Shown here: one piece after another, positions 47,243 through 64,000 of the stretch
How the letters are laid out: every line of letters starts with the position of its first letter
Position numbering within the stretch: the stretch's first letter is position 1
Origin: a virus
IMG/VR virus record: IMGVR_UViG_3300005288_000003
Span: 33,841-97,840 of that record
DNA: 64,000 bases
Strand: one strand, 5' to 3'
Position numbers and translations under genes: made by a program
Notes under the pieces: model-generated
Database searches by the model: none
What the model was told of the DNA's origin: nothing
Seen by the model: only the letters and a program-made list of their open reading frames with translations

Positions 47243-47411
47243 GTCTGGTTAAAAAGTAACCACTGGCGTTTAGCTAGCCACCAAGGCCATTCCTCCCCAA
47301 ACCCAGTTTTACATTTCAGGTACTCTCCTAAATCCTAATCGGATTTATATTTTAGGGACTTAACAAAAGCTAAGCACCCCTATAGCTGGCCGCCGTAATT
47401 TGAAAATAAGT

Positions 47412-47427
47412 TGGCACGCATCCTGCA
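47412..47427 (+). promoter_or_regulatory. sigma54 -24/-12 motif
   Basis: TGGCACGCATCCTGCA (GG-N10-GC). Confidence 0.6.
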
Positions 47428-47454
47428 TAAATCATCACTCATTCGCTAGTGGTT

Positions 47455-47470
47455 CGTTCCACGTGGAACA
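47455..47470. promoter_or_regulatory. parS: parS site
   Basis: CGTTCCACGTGGAACA; one mismatch to TGTTCCACGTGGAACA. Confidence 0.75.
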
Positions 47471-47669
47471 TAGCCCGCCCGGTGATGCCTTCGGCGTCAA
47501 ACCTTCTGCCCTTTGCACACATACAAACACTTATAACAAAAGGGGTATATAAGAACTGATATTGTGGTCGCACTATATATAGAGAGCTGTACACCTCGGA
47601 TAGCTCGCACTCTGAGGGACATACACACCACACTACGGTAGCACACCATAGGACATTGCACACACAACA

Positions 47670-47765
47670 TGGCACACTGTGTGCATCACTACACATGGCA
47701 TGCCCTATGCATAGCGTTTCATTTATCGTGTGCGATATTGCGATTGACATGCATATTATGTGCCA
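47670..47765. promoter_or_regulatory. Three clustered sigma54 -24/-12 motifs
   Basis: TGGCACACTGTGTGCA (+47670), TGGCATGCCCTATGCA (+47696), TGGCACATAATATGCA (-47765..47750). Confidence 0.55.
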
Positions 47766-48208
47766 CTCACACACCACACCCCTCCATAGGCTACCCCTAT
47801 CACCCTGTTCGCATCGATTGGAATGTATTTCTTGACACGCCAGTGTAAGTGTGATCGTTTTGCTTAGACATCACGTGGTGCTGCCCAAGCTCCGGCGAGT
47901 GAGAAACCCATATAGCATGTTTTGAAGGGTTATTGACCTATGGCCAGCCATAGGGCGAGATTCACTGTAGGCCACGGCCTACGGGGCTCACAGAGCTTTA
48001 TAGAGGGTTATTTAGGGCTCCGCCCTGATGGTCATACTCTGTCGTCTTCGACAGGTTTTGAAACCCTTTTCAAATGGTATAACAATATATTTATTTATAT
48101 GTATCCCTTCTATAGAGGGTAATGCTTTCGCCTTCGGCTTGTGGTGCAAAACCTACAGCGGAGCTGTGAGGGTATACCCTTTCACCTTCGGTTAATGTGC
48201 AAGAATGC

Positions 48209-48233
48209 AAAAGCCCCGCACTAGCGGGGCTTT
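48209..48233. terminator. AAAAGCCCCGC/GCGGGGC terminator family (also ~51378, ~53001, ~57556)
   Basis: Same stem repeated after - strand genes. Confidence 0.75.
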
Positions 48234-48248
48234 GTTTCACGTGGAACA
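48233..48248. promoter_or_regulatory. parS: parS site
   Basis: TGTTTCACGTGGAACA; fits TGTTNCACGTGNAACA. Confidence 0.8.
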
Positions 48249-48250
48249 TT

Positions 48251-48523
48251 TCAAGGCAAACGCAAACCCTTGCCATCGGTGATGATGATTTGAGAGCCAA
48301 ACCCAACGACACAACCTGTCTCGCCTTGCGAGTGTGCTTTAAGGCATGTTTCGATTACAGACATGCTATCTGAGGTTGTTGGCACTTCTTGCCATTTGGT
48401 TGTAGTCCAGCCGAAAGAGGAGTGATAGAAACCCTCCTTCACAAACCATACGCCATCCTCACGACGAGCGTATTTATAGCCGTCATTGCCGATGCGAGTG
48501 AAAGCTAAGTTTGCCTTTGCCAT
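48251..48523 (-). CDS. Hypothetical protein
   Basis: GGAG RBS; own promoter and terminator. Confidence 0.7.
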   Translation of the reverse strand: MAKANLAFTRIGNDGYKYARREDGVWFVKEGFYHSSFGWTTTKWQEVPTTSDSMSVIETCLKAHSQGETGCVVGFGSQIIITDGKGLRLP

Positions 48524-48613
48524 AACGTGCTACTCCGTCAAGGGGGCGAACCATTTCGCCTCTTCCTTGGTTAGCATTCTACACACGTGCAAACCACTGT
48601 GCAACATTCTTTT

Positions 48614-48898
48614 TCACGGAATGTCGTTATCTGCTACTTTCTCACAAGTGAAGTCATAGTCTGTCAACGTGCTAAGCTCTTCACGAACGCCGAAACGATC
48701 AAGGTATTTTTGGGCTAACTCTTGGTTCAATGCCTTGAGCTTGCCGGACTGTTCAAAGGTGAAAGCTTTCCCGAATAGGTCGCTTTCTACATACAATGTT
48801 TCATTGCATGGGGCTTGTGTGTGCCACTCTGTATCTGTGGCGATAACGTAGCCATTGCAGTTGGCGAAAGAGCACAGGGTAAGAATCAGAGCGTACAT
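48614..48898 (-). CDS. Exported protein (DUF1482-like N-terminus)
   Basis: MYALILTLCSFANC; AAGGAGG RBS. Confidence 0.65.
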   Translation of the reverse strand: MYALILTLCSFANCNGYVIATDTEWHTQAPCNETLYVESDLFGKAFTFEQSGKLKALNQELAQKYLDRFGVREELSTLTDYDFTCEKVADNDIP

Positions 48899-49134
48899 TA
48901 TTTAGCCTCCTTTGAGCGAAGCGAAACACCTTTCGAAAGGTTGCACAGAGTCAGAAGGATGAAAGCCCCAAGACAGATAGCGATAATATCGTACATTACG
49001 AAAGACTCCACAAGGTGAACAGGACAACAATGAAAGCGGGATAAAGGAGAATGGTACGTGTGGATAACATTTTGAAGCCTCCTAAGTGTGTGAAGCCATT
49101 GTACCAACTTCACACACAAGATGGAAGCTTTATT

Positions 49135-49332
49135 TCACACTACTCGCCAGCCTTCCAAGGTATGACGGCAAGACAGAGCGGCGGCGTTGTAGCCATTTGC
49201 TTTAGCTTCACGTTCGATAATGGCACGCACTTTGCGGGTATTTTCTTTGCTGTAGGTTGTACCAACTTCGGCAAGAATTTTTGCATCGGTGGCGTCTTTG
49301 AAGGCTTCGAACTTAGCGTGAGATTCGTTCAT
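49135..49332 (-). CDS. Hypothetical protein
   Basis: 65 aa, downstream of a promoter and structured leader. Confidence 0.6.
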   Translation of the reverse strand: MNESHAKFEAFKDATDAKILAEVGTTYSKENTRKVRAIIEREAKANGYNAAALSCRHTLEGWRVV

Positions 49333-49482
49333 GTTCTTTACTCGTTTGTGTGTGGGTGTGCTAGGCGCTGTAACCGCTTTTCTGCCTAGCTCGCGGGATG
49401 GTTCTGACGGCCATCAAGTCGGAGGCTTCTGCCACCCTATCAGCGCTTTTTAAGAGTTATCGCTGCTTTCTCTGTATGGCCC

Positions 49483-49510
49483 ATTCTACAGGAACTAGAA
49501 TGGGCGTCAA
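49483..49510 (-). promoter_or_regulatory. Early-type sigma70 promoter (representative of ~10 in 48.5-57.9 kb)
   Basis: TTGACG-N16-TAGAAT; shared CCTG-TAGAAT. Confidence 0.75.
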
Positions 49511-49522
49511 CCATTTATTTCA

Positions 49523-49768
49523 TCAACCCGAAACTATTTTACACAGCATTCCCCGAGGCATGATGAACTGCAAAGCGAATTGCTGTGCATCCTCAAGCTG
49601 TGCAAAGCTTTCAAACTTCCAACCAACATCAACGCCACCCGAAGAAGTCGAAACTTCATAGGATGGCACGTGGATTGCTTCCATACCCGGCTGTGCCGTT
49701 GTTTGAAAGATGTTCGCCACTTTGACGGATTCAAGGTTAGCGTTGGTGAACGTTTGAATCTTTTTCAT
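49523..49768 (-). CDS. Hypothetical protein
   Basis: 81 aa; own promoter. Confidence 0.65.
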   Translation of the reverse strand: MKKIQTFTNANLESVKVANIFQTTAQPGMEAIHVPSYEVSTSSGGVDVGWKFESFAQLEDAQQFALQFIMPRGMLCKIVSG

Positions 49769-50017
49769 GGCCCTAGCCTCATTGGTTGGGTGGCTGTTTG
49801 CTTCCCTATGTCGGCCATTCTACAGGATTGGTCTACCCTGTAAACAACTATTTTCGTATAAGCACACGAAAAACCCAAACCCAAAAGCATAAGGCGAATA
49901 CAGCTAGAACAGGGTGCTCAATTCCACACATTTCAGAGTCTCACATTTTTCGATGTTGTGTCAATAGGCTTTTTAAACGCTCTGTAGTGCGTTCCATTCG
50001 TTTGCTTTTTTTTCATG

Positions 50018-50200
50018 TCACGCCTCTTTCGGCTCATAAGGCCAACCCTGTCTAGACCATGCTTTAAAGCGTTCCTCTGTAGCTAGAACATGGTTAGCGT
50101 CAAAGCATAAACCTTGCGTAAAGGGGGAGCCGTACAGGGTACGGCTGACAGTCAACCAAACCCCCGCCCTACGTGGCAACCGTTTAAAGACTAGCCCCAT
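50018..50200 (-). CDS. Hypothetical protein
   Basis: Coupled ORF. Confidence 0.5.
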   Translation of the reverse strand: MGLVFKRLPRRAGVWLTVSRTLYGSPFTQGLCFDANHVLATEERFKAWSRQGWPYEPKEA

Positions 50201-50658
50201 TACAGGGATTGGCCCTTGGCCCTTTCTGTGCCTTTCTTCGCTTCTGGCGTGGCCTTGGGGGCTTCTGGAACGTCGCCTAGAGCGTCGTCAAGCTTCTTTT
50301 CCAAGAAGTCTATGGCCTTACCGCCAATGCGTTGCCCTGTCTCACTGGTGACGGCCTTGTAAGTTACGCCACTGCCGACGATGATAGCCAAATCCTTTTG
50401 GGATGGCACAAGGTAAGTTAGGCAACCGAGGACTAGACCAACGATCATAGACCACTTAGACAACGTGGCAAACGTTTTAAATCCGGGTTGTTTCATCTGT
50501 TCGGCGGTTGTCCGCTTCGTGTCAATGGCAGAGAAAGAAGCGGCAAACAAGATGATACCGAACAACAAAGCGCCTCCCCAAAAGGCGCCCCAACCGAGGG
50601 CCAGCAACGCAGCAAGCTTTTCAACCATTACGAAAACATAGATTACAAACCATTCCAT
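50200..50658 (-). CDS. Membrane protein
   Basis: 2-3 hydrophobic segments. Confidence 0.7.
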   Translation of the reverse strand: MEWFVIYVFVMVEKLAALLALGWGAFWGGALLFGIILFAASFSAIDTKRTTAEQMKQPGFKTFATLSKWSMIVGLVLGCLTYLVPSQKDLAIIVGSGVTYKAVTSETGQRIGGKAIDFLEKKLDDALGDVPEAPKATPEAKKGTERAKGQSL

Positions 50659-51173
50659 TACAGCAAACTCCTAAGGATTAGAGGGATAAAAGGTGTTACA
50701 GGGTAAAAGGTTTCACATTGGCACGCTTCAAAGCTTCCATTGCTACCAGCCTTACGGCGTGCTTGAGCTTCTGTCATACCGTAGTGGACTGCTGCCGTAG
50801 GTTGAACCCCAGCCACGTCAGACAATTCAGTGTATTGTGACGATGCTTGATAGGTGGCGAGAAACTGTTCAAGCGTTGTATATTTCCAGTTTGCACCACG
50901 TAGCGACCACGTTGGGCATTCGTTGAACATATCTTGATAGGTGCGGTTGTCACCTTGTACCAACTGCCAGCCTGTGCCAGTGCTACGGGGTTGGTCTGTC
51001 TTATAGTTGCCGGTAAAGTTGAAACCGCCCAAATCGAGTTGAAAACTCACAACCTTAGAACCTTCGGCGTCTGTGTAGAAGCCATAAGTGCCGCTCTTAG
51101 CGATGAACACGCGAAAGCCAGAAGCTTTGATGTTCTTTGCCAGTTCGCTGGTAGCTTCGATTTTCCAAGACAT
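50658..51173 (-). CDS. Hypothetical protein
   Basis: Start MSWKIE after AAGGA; promoter at 51225-51252. Confidence 0.65.
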   Translation of the reverse strand: MSWKIEATSELAKNIKASGFRVFIAKSGTYGFYTDAEGSKVVSFQLDLGGFNFTGNYKTDQPRSTGTGWQLVQGDNRTYQDMFNECPTWSLRGANWKYTTLEQFLATYQASSQYTELSDVAGVQPTAAVHYGMTEAQARRKAGSNGSFEACQCETFYPVTPFIPLILRSLL

Positions 51174-51416
51174 GATTGCGTTTCCTTTCAATTGGTAGAA
51201 GCTTATTCGCTTCTGATGTTGGTCATTCTACAGGGTGTGACATCCGTGTCAACACAATTTTAAAGCGAAGTTGAAAACATTATGAACAGAGATATCAGCC
51301 ATACAATGAACAATGTTGTCAAGATGATTATTGTGATTTTCTCTATAAGCGTCATACAACCTACCTCCCTAGAGACGAAAAAGCCCCGCTGGTTAGGCGG
51401 GGCGAAGGGTTGTAGC

Positions 51417-52874
51417 TTATGCCGCTTCTGGTTTTTCAGCGGTGCGGCTTGGTAGTTTCAACATCCAGCGAATCATGTCACCGATGATCGGGTAGATATC
51501 GTTGTGGCGAGTGGCGAACCGCATCCACTTATTCTGGACATCAAAGACACCGATAGAGCGTGAACTGTCACCGCCATCCGGCAGGTAGTCACGAAGGCCG
51601 GTAAGCTTGGCTCTGATGCGTTCTTGCTCAGTCATTTCATAGAACCGCCATACCGGATTAGTGTGGCTGAAATTGACTTGACTCAAGTTTTGCAGAAGGC
51701 GTTCCAAGTCTTCTGTAGCTGTTTCATCCCGACGACGACCGTACCCAAGGTCGTACACGAGTTTTGCAATGGCCTTGACGACTACAGGCTGTGCTAGCAC
51801 CGTGTTAGCCTTTGCCCCTTGCTCACCAAACCCCGGAACGTTAGCAATAGCGCCCCACATACGGCACGCTGTAGCATATTTCTCTTCTACATCGGCAGGC
51901 GTGGCACTGGCGATGCTGGTTTTGTTCAGGAACAGGATAGCGTTTGTTGCTGCCAAGTCGCGGAACGTCCAGCGGCCTGTATCCTTTGCCCAGTTGGTTT
52001 GGTCGCCATCTGCTACATCGTCCCAATCCAGAATGTGAGGTAACAATTCACTCTGGATAAACTGGTTAACAGGGTTGGCGCTGTCAAACTTAAGTGCTAG
52101 ACTACGCTCCACCTTTTTAGCAAGGTTGTTCAGGTCGTGAAACAGTTGTTGCTCTTCCCGAACGCCAAGCCCTAGATGAATCTCGACAGCCACCTTACTG
52201 AAACCCCGTGCCACTTCGTCGCATTCGTCCCAAGCTGCCAGCACTTCGGTTGGAATGGTTTCCTTGAAATTACCTTCAAAGAGTTTCGGCTTGCGTGGAT
52301 ATTTCCGATTCAACCTGATTTCAGTCAGGAATTCGAAAACCAAATCCATCGCATAGCGTCTGTGCTGGCCATCGATCACGTACAGCATGTCACGTTGCCC
52401 GAGGAACACCTTGAAGCATGCGGTTTCGCCGTCCGCTTCCATTCGTTTACCTTCGATGCCAGCGCCACCGGGTTCAACGGTGCGAAGGTTGCACACGATA
52501 GGCTGCAAGCTCATGTAGGTTTGTGGCCCCATTACCCTTTGCAGTTCGTGCAGTGCCGGCGACTCAGGCTTGTGGAAGTTGCGACGGTATTCAATAGCCG
52601 CTGCAATCATGCCCCGAAGGATGTACTTAGCAAGGCCGGTGGCGTGAGCTTCGTTCAATGGCCGCTGTGTGGCTGGCGAGCCATCGGGTTGACGTTCGTT
52701 CGCTACCTTGCTCATAGCGTAGAAGTCTTTCATTGGAATCAGGGCGATAAAGGTACGGTGCCCCAAATTGTGACCAATGAACACCTTTTCAGGTCTGACT
52801 TGAGAGTCAGCTTCTTTCAACAGGTTGTCGATGGAAGTGAGTGGAGTAGGGAGCGATTCATTTGGCATGAACAT
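51417..52874 (-). CDS. DGQHR/DndB-family protein (ParB/Srx-like fold)
   Basis: QRPLNEAH, YVIDGQHRR, EQQLFHDLN motifs; AGGAG RBS; own promoter and terminator. Confidence 0.85.
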   Translation of the reverse strand: MFMPNESLPTPLTSIDNLLKEADSQVRPEKVFIGHNLGHRTFIALIPMKDFYAMSKVANERQPDGSPATQRPLNEAHATGLAKYILRGMIAAAIEYRRNFHKPESPALHELQRVMGPQTYMSLQPIVCNLRTVEPGGAGIEGKRMEADGETACFKVFLGQRDMLYVIDGQHRRYAMDLVFEFLTEIRLNRKYPRKPKLFEGNFKETIPTEVLAAWDECDEVARGFSKVAVEIHLGLGVREEQQLFHDLNNLAKKVERSLALKFDSANPVNQFIQSELLPHILDWDDVADGDQTNWAKDTGRWTFRDLAATNAILFLNKTSIASATPADVEEKYATACRMWGAIANVPGFGEQGAKANTVLAQPVVVKAIAKLVYDLGYGRRRDETATEDLERLLQNLSQVNFSHTNPVWRFYEMTEQERIRAKLTGLRDYLPDGGDSSRSIGVFDVQNKWMRFATRHNDIYPIIGDMIRWMLKLPSRTAEKPEAA

Positions 52875-53040
52875 GGCATTTCTCCTAGAACGTTTGGTTT
52901 GCCTTTCGGCTTGGGCTCGGCTGTTTGCCTTGCTTGATTAAGAGACTAGCACCCCTAGAATGAGAGTCAAGGATTATTTTCAATTATTTTCTATGGAATG
53001 AAAAAGCCCCGCTAGGCGGGGCTTTCCTCAGGCTATTGCA

Positions 53041-53346
53041 TCAATCATGCCAATCTACATCAACATCGTTCGAAGCGGCTAGCTGGCCCTGCAAGCTGTT
53101 TTGTAGCTCTTCTTGAAACTCTACCTTGATCGCCTCAAACATCCCCGGCGACAGTTGGCGAAGAGCGCCCCCCGGCTTGACGTTCAAACCACAAATCGTC
53201 ACTTCGCTATAAGTGGCGTTCAAATGCTCTTCAAGCTCCTGATCCGTCACTTGCACAACCCCCAGCTTCACGTCATACCCACGGAAAGCCTTAACAGCAC
53301 CTAACGACAGCAAAACAACCTTATTCATACTGCCCAATCTATACAA
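53041..53346 (-). CDS. Hypothetical acidic protein
   Basis: EVTICGL...ALRQLSP; promoter at 53401-53428. Confidence 0.65.
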   Translation of the reverse strand: MYRLGSMNKVVLLSLGAVKAFRGYDVKLGVVQVTDQELEEHLNATYSEVTICGLNVKPGGALRQLSPGMFEAIKVEFQEELQNSLQGQLAASNDVDVDWHD

Positions 53347-53469
53347 CTCCTATGGTTGCCGGTGGCTGCCTTTCTGGCTTATTCCTTCCCGGTGACGAAC
53401 ATTCTACAGGGAATCAGGGCCACGTCAACTAGAAAAACTCTAATTAAATCAGTGGCCCTAGATGGTTAG

Positions 53470-53808
53470 TTAATCTTCTTTGTCGTCTTCAAAGATGTAT
53501 TCGGTGCCACCTACCTTGCAACTGGTCATTTTCGACAGCGTGACGTTAACCCAAGGATAGGGATTGCCCGCTGCGATTTTGTCCGGGTCGGCGGCGGTAT
53601 ACATGTCCGGGTTAGCTGCTACCGGGTTGGCCTTGACATCATCTTTCGTGCCGCTTGTCAAGGCTTTATTCATCCATTGTTTCAGAACCCGATGCGTGGT
53701 AGTGCCATCCTTTTTAATCCACGTCACACCCATCATCTGGCCTTTGTTGCCGTCCAGAATTTCCCGCTTCTGTTTGATGGTAGCGCCTTTGATAACTACT
53801 GTGTTCAT
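53470..53808 (-). CDS. WYL_2/DUF2693-like SH3-fold protein
   Basis: GVTWIKKDGT motif. Confidence 0.6.
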   Translation of the reverse strand: MNTVVIKGATIKQKREILDGNKGQMMGVTWIKKDGTTTHRVLKQWMNKALTSGTKDDVKANPVAANPDMYTAADPDKIAAGNPYPWVNVTLSKMTSCKVGGTEYIFEDDKED

Positions 53809-53996
53809 GATCTGTAAGCCTCGGTTAGTCTTCGGAGTCAGCCACTAGCAGGATAGGGAAATCGAAGTTATCAGACTCGGCTTCGAAGACTTCCTGTGTG
53901 TCTGTGGTGAAAGGATACCACACCTTCGCCACCTGTACACAACTATTTTTACGGTAAATTTTCCAATACATTTTGTTATCTTATAACCTTTACATT

Positions 53997-54332
53997 CTAG
54001 GCGTAGCAGGCGGCTCCCGCTGGCGTTACATACTGTGAACTATGCCAGTATATGCCCCACACTGTTAGCAGGGCTTGTAAGTGGCGTGTAGTGCCTTGCC
54101 CGCGCATCTGTGGGCATGTTCTCTTATAGTAAATCTCGCCATCTGGATTCAGTAGAACACCGCTGTATCCGATGTTATGCGCTACTGACTTGAAAACTAC
54201 AATCCGATACCGCCCTACATGGTCACGAAAAAGCCTGATAACGCGGCCATCTGCTAGGGTAGAGACTCTTTGCAGGGTCTCAAGGCCGGTTAACATACAC
54301 TGATTCAGCGCGTTATAAACCGATTGATTCAT
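53997..54332 (-). CDS. Hypothetical protein with GNAT-like acetyl-CoA motif
   Basis: TCPQMRGQGTTRHL. Confidence 0.5.
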   Translation of the reverse strand: MNQSVYNALNQCMLTGLETLQRVSTLADGRVIRLFRDHVGRYRIVVFKSVAHNIGYSGVLLNPDGEIYYKRTCPQMRGQGTTRHLQALLTVWGIYWHSSQYVTPAGAACYA

Positions 54333-54338
54333 GCCCTA

Positions 54339-55031
54339 TCAACCCCGTGCTATCACTTCAACGGACTTTGCCGCTGTACCATGAGCGCGAAAGCCGATAA
54401 TATAATCACGTTTTGCATCTTGACAAAGGCCACACTTAACGCAATTCACTTTGTCGGTATTCTCAGCAGGGCAGATAACAACCTTATTCCCGGCTGGAGT
54501 GTAGGACACTTTCTCAGCATCACGCGGCATAATTACAACAACTGGAGCAACATTTAAAGCTTTCAACTTATCAGCATGATTAACATCGTTGCCGCTTAAG
54601 TTGATTGTAAAGCCTTTAGCGTTTGCATCTTTCACACAAGCACGATTCAAACCATTTTCAAGTGTATCGTAGTGTGTATATGTAAAGCCACGTTTGCCCT
54701 TGTTTGCGTTTACAAGTTCAAGCAACTTGACATGATCGATACGGCCTGTACCTTCTACGCCGTTCAAATCACCGGCCTGATTGTGACGCCACAAACTGCC
54801 ACGCGACAGCGCTTTAACTTGCTTGATGAATTGCGGCCATTCTACAGCGTTCTTACTTTCACCAGCATCCAGCTTGCGCCAGTGCATACCGACAGGACCA
54901 TACTTTGCATAACAGCCTTTCACCTTAATAGGGCAAGCATCAGGGCATGTCGAACTATTCGAGGTGGATACTGGCATTGGACCGGTCTTAGTGTTGCCGC
55001 TAACTGGATTCAGAACGTAGAACGAAGACAT
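54339..55031 (-). CDS. Cys-rich putative Fe-S protein (gp88/radical-SAM-like)
   Basis: CPDACP..GCYA, RHNQAGD, FTYTH, ICPA..CVKCGLC, GFRAHG. Confidence 0.65.
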   Translation of the reverse strand: MSSFYVLNPVSGNTKTGPMPVSTSNSSTCPDACPIKVKGCYAKYGPVGMHWRKLDAGESKNAVEWPQFIKQVKALSRGSLWRHNQAGDLNGVEGTGRIDHVKLLELVNANKGKRGFTYTHYDTLENGLNRACVKDANAKGFTINLSGNDVNHADKLKALNVAPVVVIMPRDAEKVSYTPAGNKVVICPAENTDKVNCVKCGLCQDAKRDYIIGFRAHGTAAKSVEVIARG

Positions 55032-55099
55032 TAAAGCGTTTCCCGTGCATTGCTGTGTGTTTGTTTATGTCGCTGATTTTACAGGGTTTTTGTAGCTGG

Positions 55100-55501
55100 T
55101 CAAGCTTTATTTACACACCAGAACCAGAACAGAACCACGATAAACAACAACCATTTAAAAGATTTGTCATTGACATTTGACAGCAGCCAGAAGCGGGCTA
55201 GAGTTACTTTAGAAGGTGACGGATAAAACGGCATGGCGTCATAATCCGGCTCTTCTACTGGCTTCCCTTTGTCACGCTTTCGAATGATTGCAGCTCTATC
55301 AGCTTGCAGCCTTTCGAGTAATTCAAAATACAACTCGGACGGCATACCTTTTGCATTGTCTCGCTCTAGCTCTCTTTCGAGTTTATCTAGATCATCCAGC
55401 TTTTTAGCGGTTGGATCGATTCGATAACGCAAGGGTAAGGGAGGAACCTTTGAAGACTCCCCACTTCGACGGATAGCAGCCACTAGATAGCGACGTACCA
55501 C
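55100..55501 (-). CDS. Hypothetical protein with C-terminal membrane anchor (start uncertain)
   Basis: Helical body; WLLFIVVLFWFW. Confidence 0.55.
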   Translation of the reverse strand: MVRRYLVAAIRRSGESSKVPPLPLRYRIDPTAKKLDDLDKLERELERDNAKGMPSELYFELLERLQADRAAIIRKRDKGKPVEEPDYDAMPFYPSPSKVTLARFWLLSNVNDKSFKWLLFIVVLFWFWCVNKA

Positions 55502-55700
55502 GTGCCCTTCGACTTGTACAGTTTACACGGTGTGCCAGCCTGAGCGTGTGCGGCTGCTACTGTGAAAGCGGATACAGCGTTAGGGTGTGGAAGAATATTT
55601 GAGTACAAGCTGAGTACCTTGTCTAGTTGGTGTGCCGAAGATTCTACAGAGACAAAGAAGCCCCGTCAACCTCTTATTTACAGGTTTGCGGGGCTTTCTT

Positions 55701-55862
55701 TTATTCTTCTATGCCCATTGCCGGGGCTACAGGTTGAAACTCAAACGAGCGGCGACCTGTTGAAGATTGGCGGCGTGTACGGCTAGCCTTGCGGGTCGCC
55801 TTCTTGTATTGTTCGTATTCACGAGCTGTAGCGAAATCGTTTACAGTTGCTTTGCGAGACAT
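55701..55862 (-). CDS. Small basic protein (53 aa)
   Basis: MSRKATVNDFATAREYEQYKKATRKASRTRR; between a promoter and terminator; below track cutoff. Confidence 0.6.
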   Translation of the reverse strand: MSRKATVNDFATAREYEQYKKATRKASRTRRQSSTGRRSFEFQPVAPAMGIEE

Positions 55863-55932
55863 TTAAAGCCCTTACTTCTATTTATGATTTGGTTGTGCCG
55901 ATTGTATAGGGAACCGGCTACCCTGTCAACGC

Positions 55933-56481
55933 TTAGAAGCGCTTTTGAACGCGGCTCAATACTTCCAATACCTGAGCTTTGTCGAGGTCGCCCATTCGCA
56001 ACTCTTGCTCAATGCGTTCTGCCTTGCTGTCCAGCTTCTGAGCTACCCGCACATTGATAAACGCACGAGTGAGAAAGGATTGTGCGGCCACTTCGTCGGT
56101 AATGCCAATCTTTACCAACTGGCTAGCTGCGTGGTCGAAAGTGGCTTGCACTTCTTTGCAAACTTTGCTAGCGACCGGCGTGAAGACTTTAGCAATTACC
56201 ACACCCTTACCGCCAGCCATCCGCACCTTATCTGCTGCTACTTGACGTTTGAACGTAGACAGGCGATGAAAGTGCATACCATGCGTGCCGCCGATTTCCT
56301 TTTCCAGAATGGTGGCCAGTTGGCTTGGGGTTTTCTTTACACTTTCCATCGCACCGGCCAACAAAGTACGATCGTCTTTCTGAAACGCCAACCCGGCACC
56401 GTTGCCAGACATTGGGGCATTGCATACAACAGCACGGGCTTGAGCTTGGGCGTACATTTTAACAAAGGTAACTACTTGCAC
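55933..56481 (-). CDS. Hypothetical protein
   Basis: AGGAG RBS; own promoter. Confidence 0.7.
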   Translation of the reverse strand: MQVVTFVKMYAQAQARAVVCNAPMSGNGAGLAFQKDDRTLLAGAMESVKKTPSQLATILEKEIGGTHGMHFHRLSTFKRQVAADKVRMAGGKGVVIAKVFTPVASKVCKEVQATFDHAASQLVKIGITDEVAAQSFLTRAFINVRVAQKLDSKAERIEQELRMGDLDKAQVLEVLSRVQKRF

Positions 56482-56541
56482 TTCTAAATTCTCCTAATGA
56501 ATGATTGTGTGTCGCCATTCTATCGACGGCGATTCAGCATG

Positions 56542-56835
56542 TCAAGCGAAAGTTATACGGCGCCCGCCAATCGACAGTGCTTTGATTGTTTCCATGTTGA
56601 CATTCCGCACCTGATCGCGGCCTTGATCATCCTTTCTATTCAGAACGACCTTGACATATTTTTCAATGTGTGCGGTAGTGTCAGCACCACCTTTACCTAC
56701 CTTGCGAACATGCCCGTTCAAGGTACGCTCTGTGCCGTCCTTTTTAACGAACGTCACACCCAACCATTTAGAACCATTCGCCTTGATCATCGCTGCGATT
56801 TGCTGTGAGACAACATCTGTTTTCACTACTTGCAT
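56542..56835 (-). CDS. WYL_2/DUF2693-like SH3-fold protein
   Basis: GVTFVKKDGTERTL...RNVNMETI. Confidence 0.65.
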   Translation of the reverse strand: MQVVKTDVVSQQIAAMIKANGSKWLGVTFVKKDGTERTLNGHVRKVGKGGADTTAHIEKYVKVVLNRKDDQGRDQVRNVNMETIKALSIGGRRITFA

Positions 56836-57103
56836 TTGAAACTATTCCTCTTTGTTTGTGTGTGGCCCATTCTACAGGGTGGCTTTACCTTGTAAAGCAT
56901 TATTTTCATTCTTTCTACATTCTTTTTCGCCTCCTTACATACCAGCTTACATACCAGCGTGAGCGCATGCGAATACCACGAGAAATTATTTTCTGCAAGG
57001 GGTTGCATCGCTACGCTTGCCTAGGTAGAATCATACACAGCGGGCAACGGAGCACGGAGTGCGACCACCGGAGACAAACAGGGAGGGAGCCTGCGATTTA
57101 GGT

Positions 57104-57296
57104 TGGCATGGAAATTGCCTTGCTATAGTGTGCCAAAAGAATTTGAAAATAGTTGTTGACTCTGTGATTCAGGGGTGTAAAATTGGCCCATGATTTCAAG
57201 CTGGCCCTCGATGGGGTCGGTGCCCTCTCGCCTATAGCGCAGTCTAGCGAGGCGCATTCCTGCCCGAATGGTTTACATTCTGGCACGGGGATTGCT
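57104..57296 (+). promoter_or_regulatory. Two sigma54 motifs plus a rightward sigma70 promoter
   Basis: TGGCATGGAAATTGCC (57104), TGGCACGGGGATTGCT (57281), TTGACT-N16-TAAAAT (~57156). Confidence 0.6.
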
Positions 57297-57590
57297 ACCT
57301 CCTGTTCGTGACCAAAACGCTTTGTTCGGTCAAAAATAGATAGCTGCCTATTCAATTTAGTTAGCGGGCTAAGCAATTAGTTAGCTCCCTATCTACCGAA
57401 ATCTGCATATTATGCCCGTAATCTGAGAGGGCGTGTACAGAATTTCAGAAACCGTGAAACCCCTGTGAAAAACGCTTTAGTCCCCATTTTTCTGTAAAAA
57501 TCTGTCTAGTCCTAAAAATCTGCCCGGTCCCCATTTTCCTGAACAACACCCAACAAAAAGCCCCGCAGTGCGGGGCTTCTCTTTGTTCTG

Positions 57591-57800
57591 TCATCCGTTG
57601 GAACGCAGGCTCTCATCATAGGTATAGCCTGCTCCCAAAGCCACTGGAACACCGAAGCACAAGGCCAGAGTAACGAAGAGGAACCGACCTACCGGCTCCC
57701 ATGTCATTGGGTTCCAGACGCCACTGATGAAGGCACAGCAGAACCAGACGAAGACTACACAGGTAATTAAAGCGATGCCACAGACAGACAGAGTACGCAT
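57591..57800 (-). CDS. Small membrane protein
   Basis: Start MRTLSV after AAGGAG; two hydrophobic segments. Confidence 0.65.
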   Translation of the reverse strand: MRTLSVCGIALITCVVFVWFCCAFISGVWNPMTWEPVGRFLFVTLALCFGVPVALGAGYTYDESLRSNG

Positions 57801-57982
57801 TGGGTTGCTCCTTGTTAAGTTGATGTGGAGCATACTACAGGGTGTTAACGGGCTAGTCAAACCTTTTGCGAAAATAATCTGAGCCACAAAAATAATCTGG
57901 ATAAATAATCGCTTTGCTCAAAGTAATCTTTTGGTAAAAATAAAGCCCCACCATAAGTAATGGCAGGGCTTCAATGTGCGGC

Positions 57983-58222
57983 TCACGCCGCGTTCTTCTG
58001 GTTGACAATCTCTTGGACGGCTGCGATTCGAGCATCAATCCATCGACGGCGATAGAGATTGAAACACTTCACCAGTTCATCCTCTAGCGACTTGAGTTCC
58101 AGCTTCAAGTCTCGGATCGATTTCGCATGCAAGAGCGCCAACTCTCTTTCGGTTAGCATATCCGTTGCCTCTATAAAGAGAACATCATTGTCCTCGGGAG
58201 CATGATACCACGATTGGATCAC
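57983..58222 (-). CDS. Hypothetical protein
   Basis: 79 aa, coiled coil. Confidence 0.6.
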   Translation of the reverse strand: MIQSWYHAPEDNDVLFIEATDMLTERELALLHAKSIRDLKLELKSLEDELVKCFNLYRRRWIDARIAAVQEIVNQKNAA

Positions 58223-58236
58223 ATCGTCAAGCTATA

Positions 58237-63718: not shown

Positions 63719-63934
63719 TCAATCGTTTTCTTGATCTTCATTTTCGCCTGCCATTTCTAGCAGATCGTTTATATGACGATCACCCAACCAAGTGCGAAGG
63801 TAGTGCAGCTCCTTGGCATCAGCGATCAATTGAACCACATCTTCGGGATCAATGCAACCGATTGCGTTGTAGTTATTTTCGACGGTTTCAATCGTCCATT
63901 CTTTCGTCCAGTGGCTCATACTAGCGTGGCTCAT
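63719..63934 (-). CDS. Hypothetical protein (start uncertain)
   Basis: MSHASMSHW start arises from a 15-bp tandem duplication. Confidence 0.5.
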   Translation of the reverse strand: MSHASMSHWTKEWTIETVENNYNAIGCIDPEDVVQLIADAKELHYLRTWLGDRHINDLLEMAGENEDQEND

Positions 63935-64000
63935 ACTAGCTTGCCAACGAGGCAGATAGTGAGGACACATGCAGCGAAGGTGTTTGCAACCCACGCCTTG

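Follow-up and report, generated by a model that had tools for sequence, protein, structure and literature searches.

The RNA polymerase holoenzyme that carries sigma-54 forms a stable closed complex and cannot fire without an activator. The closest described phage system is that of the Pseudomonas aeruginosa phage YuA, which, according to PMC10914365, depends on sigma-70 as well as sigma-54 and has one sigma-54-like promoter, with a start mapped by ONT-cappable-seq; that text traces the promoter to Ceyssens et al. 2008. Here, a cluster of sigma-54-type (-24/-12) sites is described in a 64,000-nucleotide stretch of an uncultured soil phage (the window; positions 33,841-97,840 of the 97,840-bp virus record IMGVR_UViG_3300005288_000003), to which coordinates refer unless stated otherwise. 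Both appear to be Pseudomonas phages that have a host-type -24/-12 element and no sigma-54 or activator of their own, and for YuA promoter activity has been shown. YuA, as described in the same text, has a single promoter placed before genes, while in the phages considered here 10 to 14 sites per genome occur, gathered in a terminal repeat and the early block; these are mostly antisense, have no gene downstream, form face-to-face pairs in relatives and are predicted from sequence.

Escherichia coli has about 135 sigma-54 sites in 4.6 Mb, or roughly one per 34 kb (Bonocora et al. 2015, PMC4591121), as compared to ten in 10 kb here. The E. coli and Salmonella sites have the same consensus and also include intragenic and antisense examples, some conserved and some noise, and the holoenzyme binds there without firing; however, the intragenic sites of E. 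coli are biased towards the sense orientation (68%), whereas three quarters of the phage sites oppose the genes (PMC4591121). The core TGGCAC-N5-TTGCW and its strict spacing are also those of glnAp2, pspA, Pu and hrpL of P. syringae, and sigma-54 is in wide use in the species that the relatives infect, P. syringae, P. fluorescens and P. aeruginosa (for hrpL, PMC9923390). These promoters are enhancer-dependent, whereas no upstream activator site, IHF site or downstream gene was recognised at the phage sites. Among phages that employ host polymerase near a DNA end, T7 uses its host promoters A1-A3 to pull the genome in, and T5 has a first-step-transfer region. The present arrangement resembles both in that sites for host polymerase lie just inside the terminal repeat, directed inward and beside the earliest genes; it differs from T7, whose sigma-70-type promoters need no activator to fire and point the same way as the early genes. 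Finally, a preprint (10.64898/2026.10.06.757011) proposes a phage AAA+ protein that is activator-like, lacks the sigma-54-contact motif and may act on sigma-54 polymerase; no counterpart of it was found in this phage. The motif and the host machinery are thus already known. The conserved directional cluster in terminal repeat and early block appears to be new, and a literature search gave no description of such a cluster in cultured phages.

The sequence-only reading had listed ten matches to the pattern TGGCAY-N6-TGC, searched on both strands. All ten are present, the minus-strand pair being shifted by one base (47751 and 53038). In the entire 97,840-bp genome there are 11 matches, ten of which fall inside 10.2 kb (window 47412-57295), hereafter the block. 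The claim that sites are absent outside it holds for the 64-kb window, where the pattern has zero further matches, but not for the remaining genome, which contains one. The expectation given for 10 kb, 0.15 matches, is arithmetically correct under uniform composition. Dinucleotide-preserving shuffles of the block (2000 replicates) average 0.30 matches, with 5 as the highest count, and in 300 shuffled whole genomes a 10.2-kb window never had more than 5. Changing the spacer abolishes the cluster: N5 has one match and N7 two genome-wide, none of them in the block. Sites were also graded by the number of matches out of 12 to TGGCACG-N4-TTGCW, with GG and GC obligatory and with spacing controls, which is a consensus score and not a calibrated matrix. 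On this scale the block holds 12 of the 16 sites in the genome with at least 10/12 and all four with at least 11/12; its exact sites include two at 12/12 and two more at 11/12. Control spacers at the level of at least 11/12 yield 0-2 sites, none in the block. The enrichment thus persists in a scan of the whole genome against shuffles, of the kind that the sequence-only reading had proposed, with consensus-match scoring in place of a position weight matrix. TGGCAY alone is mildly over-represented in the block (26 of 139 occurrences).

The sites are oriented as was originally noticed. Eight of the ten lie on the plus strand and oppose the credible block genes, which are on the minus strand. Six are non-coding, and the other four are situated within or at the end of early genes. 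Most have indeed no gene to drive, there being no plus-strand gene for more than 35 kb downstream; any products would therefore be antisense or non-coding only.

The assignment of the motif to sigma-54 is based on positions that the search pattern leaves free. The sigma-54 consensus that Barrios et al. are said to have given in 1999 is TGGCACG-N4-TTGCW, and in a pooled set of 43 block sites from six phages these free positions agree with it: the base after TGGCAY is G in 32 (74%), the base before TGC is T in 25 (58%), and TGC is followed by A or T in 37 (86%) and then again by A or T in 41 (95%). Five matches outside the blocks of two complete genomes show G in 0/5 and A or T after TGC in 1/5. 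Sites derived from chromatin immunoprecipitation in PMC4591121 agree with the same consensus, and in the block sites GG and GC are exactly 10 bp apart within TGGCAC-N5-TTGC. Other identities were tried. A sigma-70 composite, with TTGGCA as -35 or as the box of a MotA-like middle promoter, and a dispersed longer repeat are both excluded, since neither a -10 element nor TAnnnT recurs at a constant spacing from the sites, and the sequences on either side of the ten are not related to one another. A Type I restriction motif or a Chi-like end-protection motif was rejected as well, the match to sigma-54 at 12 positions fitting instead; phages avoid rather than accumulate restriction sites. From their sequence, the sites are probably true host RpoN sites.

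In megablast searches the genome is closest to Pseudomonas myoviruses of about 98 kb around the genus Otagovirus (Pyxpy01/02, UAVern, VCM, phiPsa374, M5.1, Kremar, ventosus, UNO-G1W1 and XD2), and to judge from the alignments the phage is an Otagovirus-like Pseudomonas phage, of which the block forms the left end. For UNO-G1W1, the assembly of which employed a pipeline for terminal repeats, a 544-bp repeat was reported (PMC11256812). In the record of this phage both ends carry an exact repeat of 551 bp, the first bases of which align to window 47,373 and the end of which corresponds to about 47,852. Because this repeat aligns there, the sites at 47412, 47670, 47696 and 47751 fall into a predicted terminal repeat, referred to as hub 1, which bears out the earlier term "terminal block". 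The physical terminus is predicted at about 47,373, and we infer the boundary of hub 1 in this phage from the same homology. The IMG/VR class "direct terminal repeats" of the record rests on a different, 105-bp repeat at the record ends (window 63896-64000 and genome 1-105), which was rejected as the physical terminus; this repeat stems from overlap in the assembly, and its place within a gene arm is arbitrary. Within the 551-bp repeat of UNO-G1W1 there are five sites of at least 10/12, and in the records of phiPsa374 and M5.1 the sites are repeated at both ends.

The cluster is a property of the whole lineage. Pattern scans of the complete records of eleven relatives placed in repeat plus early block 6 of 7 matches in UAVern, 8 of 10 in ventosus, 7 of 10 in XD2, 6 of 10 in both UNO-G1W1 and Pyxpy02, 5 of 13 in phiPsa374, 4 of 6 in M5.1, 4 of 5 in Kremar, 3 of 6 in Ep020, 2 of 4 in VCM and 1-2 of 4 in Psxphi15, counts that are not independent, as many sites are homologous. 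For the 12 genomes pooled, this phage included, about 62 of 96 matches lie in about 11% of the sequence. Seven further relatives from IMG/VR, retrieved via a DndB-like gene of the block, have 3-7 sites per 12-21 kb, while control spacers give 0-2. With spacers that vary, six of the ten sites recur among UAVern, ventosus, XD2, UNO-G1W1 and Pyxpy02, so that about six look to be under selection. The direction is shared too: 32 of the 43 block sites of six phages point inward from the left end, against the early genes.

The machinery that would use these sites seems to be that of the host. A phage sigma-54 gene was searched for with PF04552 and PF04963 and an activator gene with PF00158 and PF14532, all negative, and PF00004 gave only one weak P-loop match, in a 139-amino-acid open reading frame (ORF). 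The relatives have Pseudomonas species as their recorded hosts, rpoN being a known gene of such species, and the host of this phage is presumably a Pseudomonas as well. The presence of rpoN in Pseudomonas hosts and the use of sigma-54 by hrpL of P. syringae are documented in PMC9923390.

In all annotated relatives the site-bearing stretch is a divergent early region with small hypothetical genes on a single strand, the minus strand in the orientation of the window. The credible genes of the block are all on that strand and are driven from sigma-70 promoters. At least 12 strong leftward early sigma-70 promoters (window 49483-58230, minus strand) belong to one sequence family (repeats D1-D4 and promoter scan), characterised by an A/T-rich upstream element, TTGAC, a spacer of 16-17 nucleotides (nt) and CCTGTAGAATG. 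It is against this background that we favour, with a probability of roughly 45%, the possibility that the sites are poised rightward promoters, and that transcription from them, or the complexes themselves, would oppose the leftward early units. Host sigma-54 holoenzyme would dock at the sites as a closed complex, the phage bringing neither sigma-54 nor activator. The sites would be held by selection in two non-coding control hubs, namely hub 1 and a second one about 10 kb away (hub 2), with a few more lying antisense within early genes. The inward ones would act as activator-dependent promoters of non-coding or antisense transcripts, and rightward transcription would meet the densely spaced leftward sigma-70 units head-on. 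If polymerase does occupy the sites and fire, early-gene expression or its shut-off would be tied to the state of the host sigma-54 system. This promoter reading is favoured by the inward bias and by an upstream module common to a sigma-70 promoter. The same A/T-rich element, CTATAG...AATTTGAAAATA, lies upstream both of site 47412 and of the sigma-70 core in the second promoter of hub 2 (repeat D6), and the phage seems to put either a sigma-54 or a sigma-70 core behind one and the same module.

Several observations weigh against poised promoters. In alignments A1 and A2 no conserved enhancer or activator box was recognised ahead of the sites, nor was an IHF site recognised near them, although host activators might act from solution or through sites that escaped recognition. 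Site 47412 has just about 40 bp upstream on the linear genome, and being so close to the physical end it leaves no room for an upstream enhancer. Relatives have face-to-face pairs (Table 1) with -12 ends only 1-3 bp apart, and the number of sites differs widely between them. The sites at 47696, 49221, 51902 and 53038 are conserved poorly or narrowly; to judge from the alignments, they may be lineage-specific or fortuitous and need not be functional. Site 49664 overlaps a conserved peptide, MEA(I/L)HVPS, so protein or codon constraint contributes to its conservation. In hub 2, the sites lie within stretches that are conserved anyway and are probably transcribed by sigma-70 as structured RNA, and since the surroundings are conserved too, the conservation of these sites is not independent proof.

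Some of these points would be explained better if the sites served for binding only, as the sequence-only reading had proposed, which we regard as a doubtful possibility; its ideas of titration, a shield and a ratchet are speculative. A silent sigma-54 closed complex might be a roadblock or occluder for neighbouring sigma-70 units, a sink for sigma-54 after replication, or a cap or anchor of the DNA end. Docking of this kind is favoured by the face-to-face pairs, by the 40 bp to the end and by the lack of recognised enhancers. The two halves of such a pair cannot serve two polymerases simultaneously, and the abutting pairs, which occur in five relatives, therefore fit docking or occlusion better than two promoters. 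There is furthermore no gene to drive and no activator gene was found in the Pfam searches, the sites of the terminal repeat occur at both ends of virion DNA, and site 57104 is located between two sigma-70 promoters, about 65 nt past the likely start of the first. Stable closed complexes and sigma competition are established for sigma-54 (PMC4591121). On the other hand, neither titration nor anchoring needs an inward bias of 32 in 43, intragenic binding in E. coli goes without a detectable effect on the overlapping genes (PMC4591121), and 10-14 sites per genome are few in comparison with cellular sigma-54 until replication has advanced.

It is unlikely that the motif belongs to another factor, as a TGGCA half-site operator for a phage early protein or a host factor, or as part of an RNA hairpin in the hubs. 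Inverted TGGCA...TGCCA arrangements do exist in both hubs, RNAalifold folds the pair of hub 2 into a stem downstream of a covarying hairpin, and most block proteins are without known family, so that a DNA binder is possible among them. Such a reading accounts for the palindromic cases, but many sites are solitary and non-palindromic, and the arms match the asymmetric 16-bp sigma-54 consensus up to 12/12, including positions that need no pairing. The stem arms are invariant instead of covarying, and the spacing of paired arms varies (22-24 nt), unlike that of a rigid dimer operator.

It could also be imagined, although we consider this quite improbable, that repeat and early block together form a landing pad, in which closed complexes, formed on entering DNA at the pairs and only tens of base pairs from the end, are employed as protein devices. 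Such devices would gate or ratchet genome entry, block leftward early transcription, or soak up sigma-54 after replication. As a sponge, the pad would silence the host sigma-54 regulon, that is, flagella, pili, type III secretion and RNA repair. Very improbable, finally, is an origin by chance or by riding on coding or RNA constraint in a TGGCA-rich region, without selected function: the slight enrichment of TGGCAY in the block, the conserved codons that explain 51902 and 53038 (both lost in some relatives) and the "biological noise" to which the intragenic sigma-54 sites of E. coli are partly ascribed (PMC4591121) speak for it, but ten matches stand against 0.30 expected and a shuffle maximum of 5, the enrichment is confined to one spacing and recurs in eleven other genomes, six sites are non-coding, and consensus-like bases occupy unconstrained positions.

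Table 1. Sites, hubs and neighbouring genes of the block (window coordinates; scores are matches out of 12 to the sigma-54 consensus), and face-to-face pairs in relatives (coordinates of their own records)
Feature	Position	Strand	Score	Remarks
Predicted direct terminal repeat (hub 1), non-coding	47373..47852			homology to UNO-G1W1 repeat, alignment A2
Sigma-54-type site TGGCACGCATCCTGCA	47412..47427	+	11/12	about 40 bp inside predicted left end
Sigma-54-type site TGGCACACTGTGTGCA	47670..47685	+	10/12	homologues in UAVern (461) and ventosus (L006 2990)
Sigma-54-type site TGGCATGCCCTATGCA	47696..47711	+	10/12	lineage-specific; missing at aligned place of UAVern
Sigma-54-type site TGGCACATAATATGCA	47750..47765	-	10/12	kept in UAVern (540, -) and ventosus (L006 3039, -)
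Sigma-54-type site TGGCACGCACTTTGCG	49221..49236	+	11/12	antisense in 65-amino-acid ORF 49135-49332
Perfect sigma-54-type site TGGCACGTGGATTGCT	49664..49679	+	12/12	antisense in 81-amino-acid ORF 49523-49768
Stand-alone DndB-family protein, largest gene of block	51417-52874	-		Pfam E 3.7e-31; own promoter and terminator
Weak site TGGCACTGGCGATGCT	51902..51917	+	10/12	antisense in DndB-like gene
Site TGGCATGATTGATGCA	53037..53052	-	10/12	over stop codon of ORF 53041-53346, upstream of terminator
DUF7227 protein	54339-55031			E 1e-101; adjoins DndB-like gene
Conserved non-coding hub 2, 0.75 kb	56836..57591			about 10 kb from hub 1; alignment A1 with UAVern, ventosus, XD2
Sigma-54-type site TGGCATGGAAATTGCC	57104..57119	+	10/12	TTGGCAY and TTGC invariant in four phages; spacer variable
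Perfect sigma-54-type site TGGCACGGGGATTGCT	57281..57296	+	12/12	same sequence in UAVern; in ventosus and XD2 the spacer has one or two changes
Face-to-face pair, UAVern	11414/11432
Face-to-face pairs, ventosus	12153/12171 and 2990/3009
Face-to-face pair, XD2	12062/12080
Face-to-face pair, UNO-G1W1	424/441
Face-to-face pair, phiPsa374	108/126

Hub 1 contains four sigma-54-type sites, one parS of the host type and a conserved element, GTCGCAYTATATATA. UAVern (229), ventosus (L006 2707) and UNO-G1W1 (40) all retain site 47412, with TGGCA and T/CTGC fixed and the spacer variable. The minus-strand site at 47750..47765 faces the preceding sites 47670 and 47696. The element GTCGCAYTATATATA (window 47567-47581) is unchanged in each of the five terminal regions that were aligned, being single-copy in this genome and multicopy in the aligned terminal regions of UNO-G1W1 (L004 1-551) and Pyxpy02 (L003 3625-4730). 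It may be a signal that acts in packaging or is specific to the terminus, or else a phage-specific promoter.

Palindromes of the host-chromosome parS type, TGTTCCACGTGGAACA with at most one mismatch, occur at window 47455-47470 and 48233-48248. They are the only ones in this genome and lie in and adjoining the predicted terminal repeat. Further copies were located in relatives (L001 270, 1019 and 6933; L006 2744, 3516, 5254 and 9207; L007 3947 and 4559; L003 9558). In UAVern and ventosus an additional parS precedes, by exactly 21 bp, the start codon of the gene for the DndB-like protein, which has a ParB fold, and this position suggests that the phage protein itself may bind the parS in front of its gene in these two phages. 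Upstream of the DndB-like gene of this window there is no parS. On the improbable landing-pad reading, the presence of parS in the same hub as the sigma-54-type sites would suggest a wider recruitment of host DNA-binding machines to the phage terminus.

In hub 2 the promoter scan indicates two rightward sigma-70 promoters, at about 57,000-57,031 and about 57,156-57,183, and a terminator lies at 57,558-57,578. Site 57104 is found directly upstream of the second promoter, and the likely start of transcription from a sigma-70 promoter is about 65 nt upstream of it. In relatives this site is the left one of two abutting sites that face each other; here the partner has decayed to a remnant, GTGCCAA, at 57,129-57,135. 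Site 57281 is nearly invariant, and so are its surroundings. Downstream of the first promoter, at about 57,036-57,100, there is a hairpin with a GGA loop, with compensatory changes at three stem pairs in four phages (consensus fold A3) and followed by further GGA motifs (ACGGAG, CCGGAG and AGGGAGGGAG). Its G-U pairs place the RNA on the plus strand. The segment likely encodes a small RNA, which with GGA in the loop resembles RsmY and RsmZ, RNAs bound by RsmA/CsrA. Directly before the hub terminator, three tandem iteron-like repeats of the type CTGTGAAAAAC..TAGTCCCCA (about 57,465-57,535) are kept in UAVern, ventosus and XD2, and hub 2 could function as an origin of replication or as an array to which a phage protein binds. 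Rfam searches at permissive E-values gave no family above the gathering score for 46.5-58.5 kb and only weak terminator-like matches. No RNA datasets that contain the block are listed, and a DNA match was found only in the probable source soil metagenome.

The four sites associated with early genes are of unequal quality. For 49221, no homologous stretch is present in the relatives fetched. Site 49664 lies about 80 nt from the start codon of ORF 49523-49768 and is found as an identical 15-mer in Pyxpy02, M5.1, Ep020 and three relatives from IMG/VR; ventosus differs by a single change, and in UAVern the site is degenerate. Pyxpy02, UAVern and ventosus no longer have the GG at the place aligned to 51902, and this site is probably fortuitous. 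Site 53038 is retained in Pyxpy02 only. A Pfam search with 20 proteins, taken from the block and from the flank on its right, recovered DndB and DUF7227, the other matches being sub-threshold.

The use of sigma-54 by phages is almost undocumented, and the promoter of YuA is the sole published case found. In the present group a directional cluster of such sites is kept throughout a lineage that has cultured members infecting P. syringae, P. fluorescens and P. aeruginosa. Its role is directly testable, since phiPsa374, UAVern, ventosus, UNO-G1W1 and XD2 are cultured and rpoN mutants exist. If the sites are occupied, either the early programme of these phages would be tied to a signal-dependent host sigma factor, or silent polymerase complexes would be used as DNA-bound devices. 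Either outcome would represent a new layer of transcription control between phage and host.

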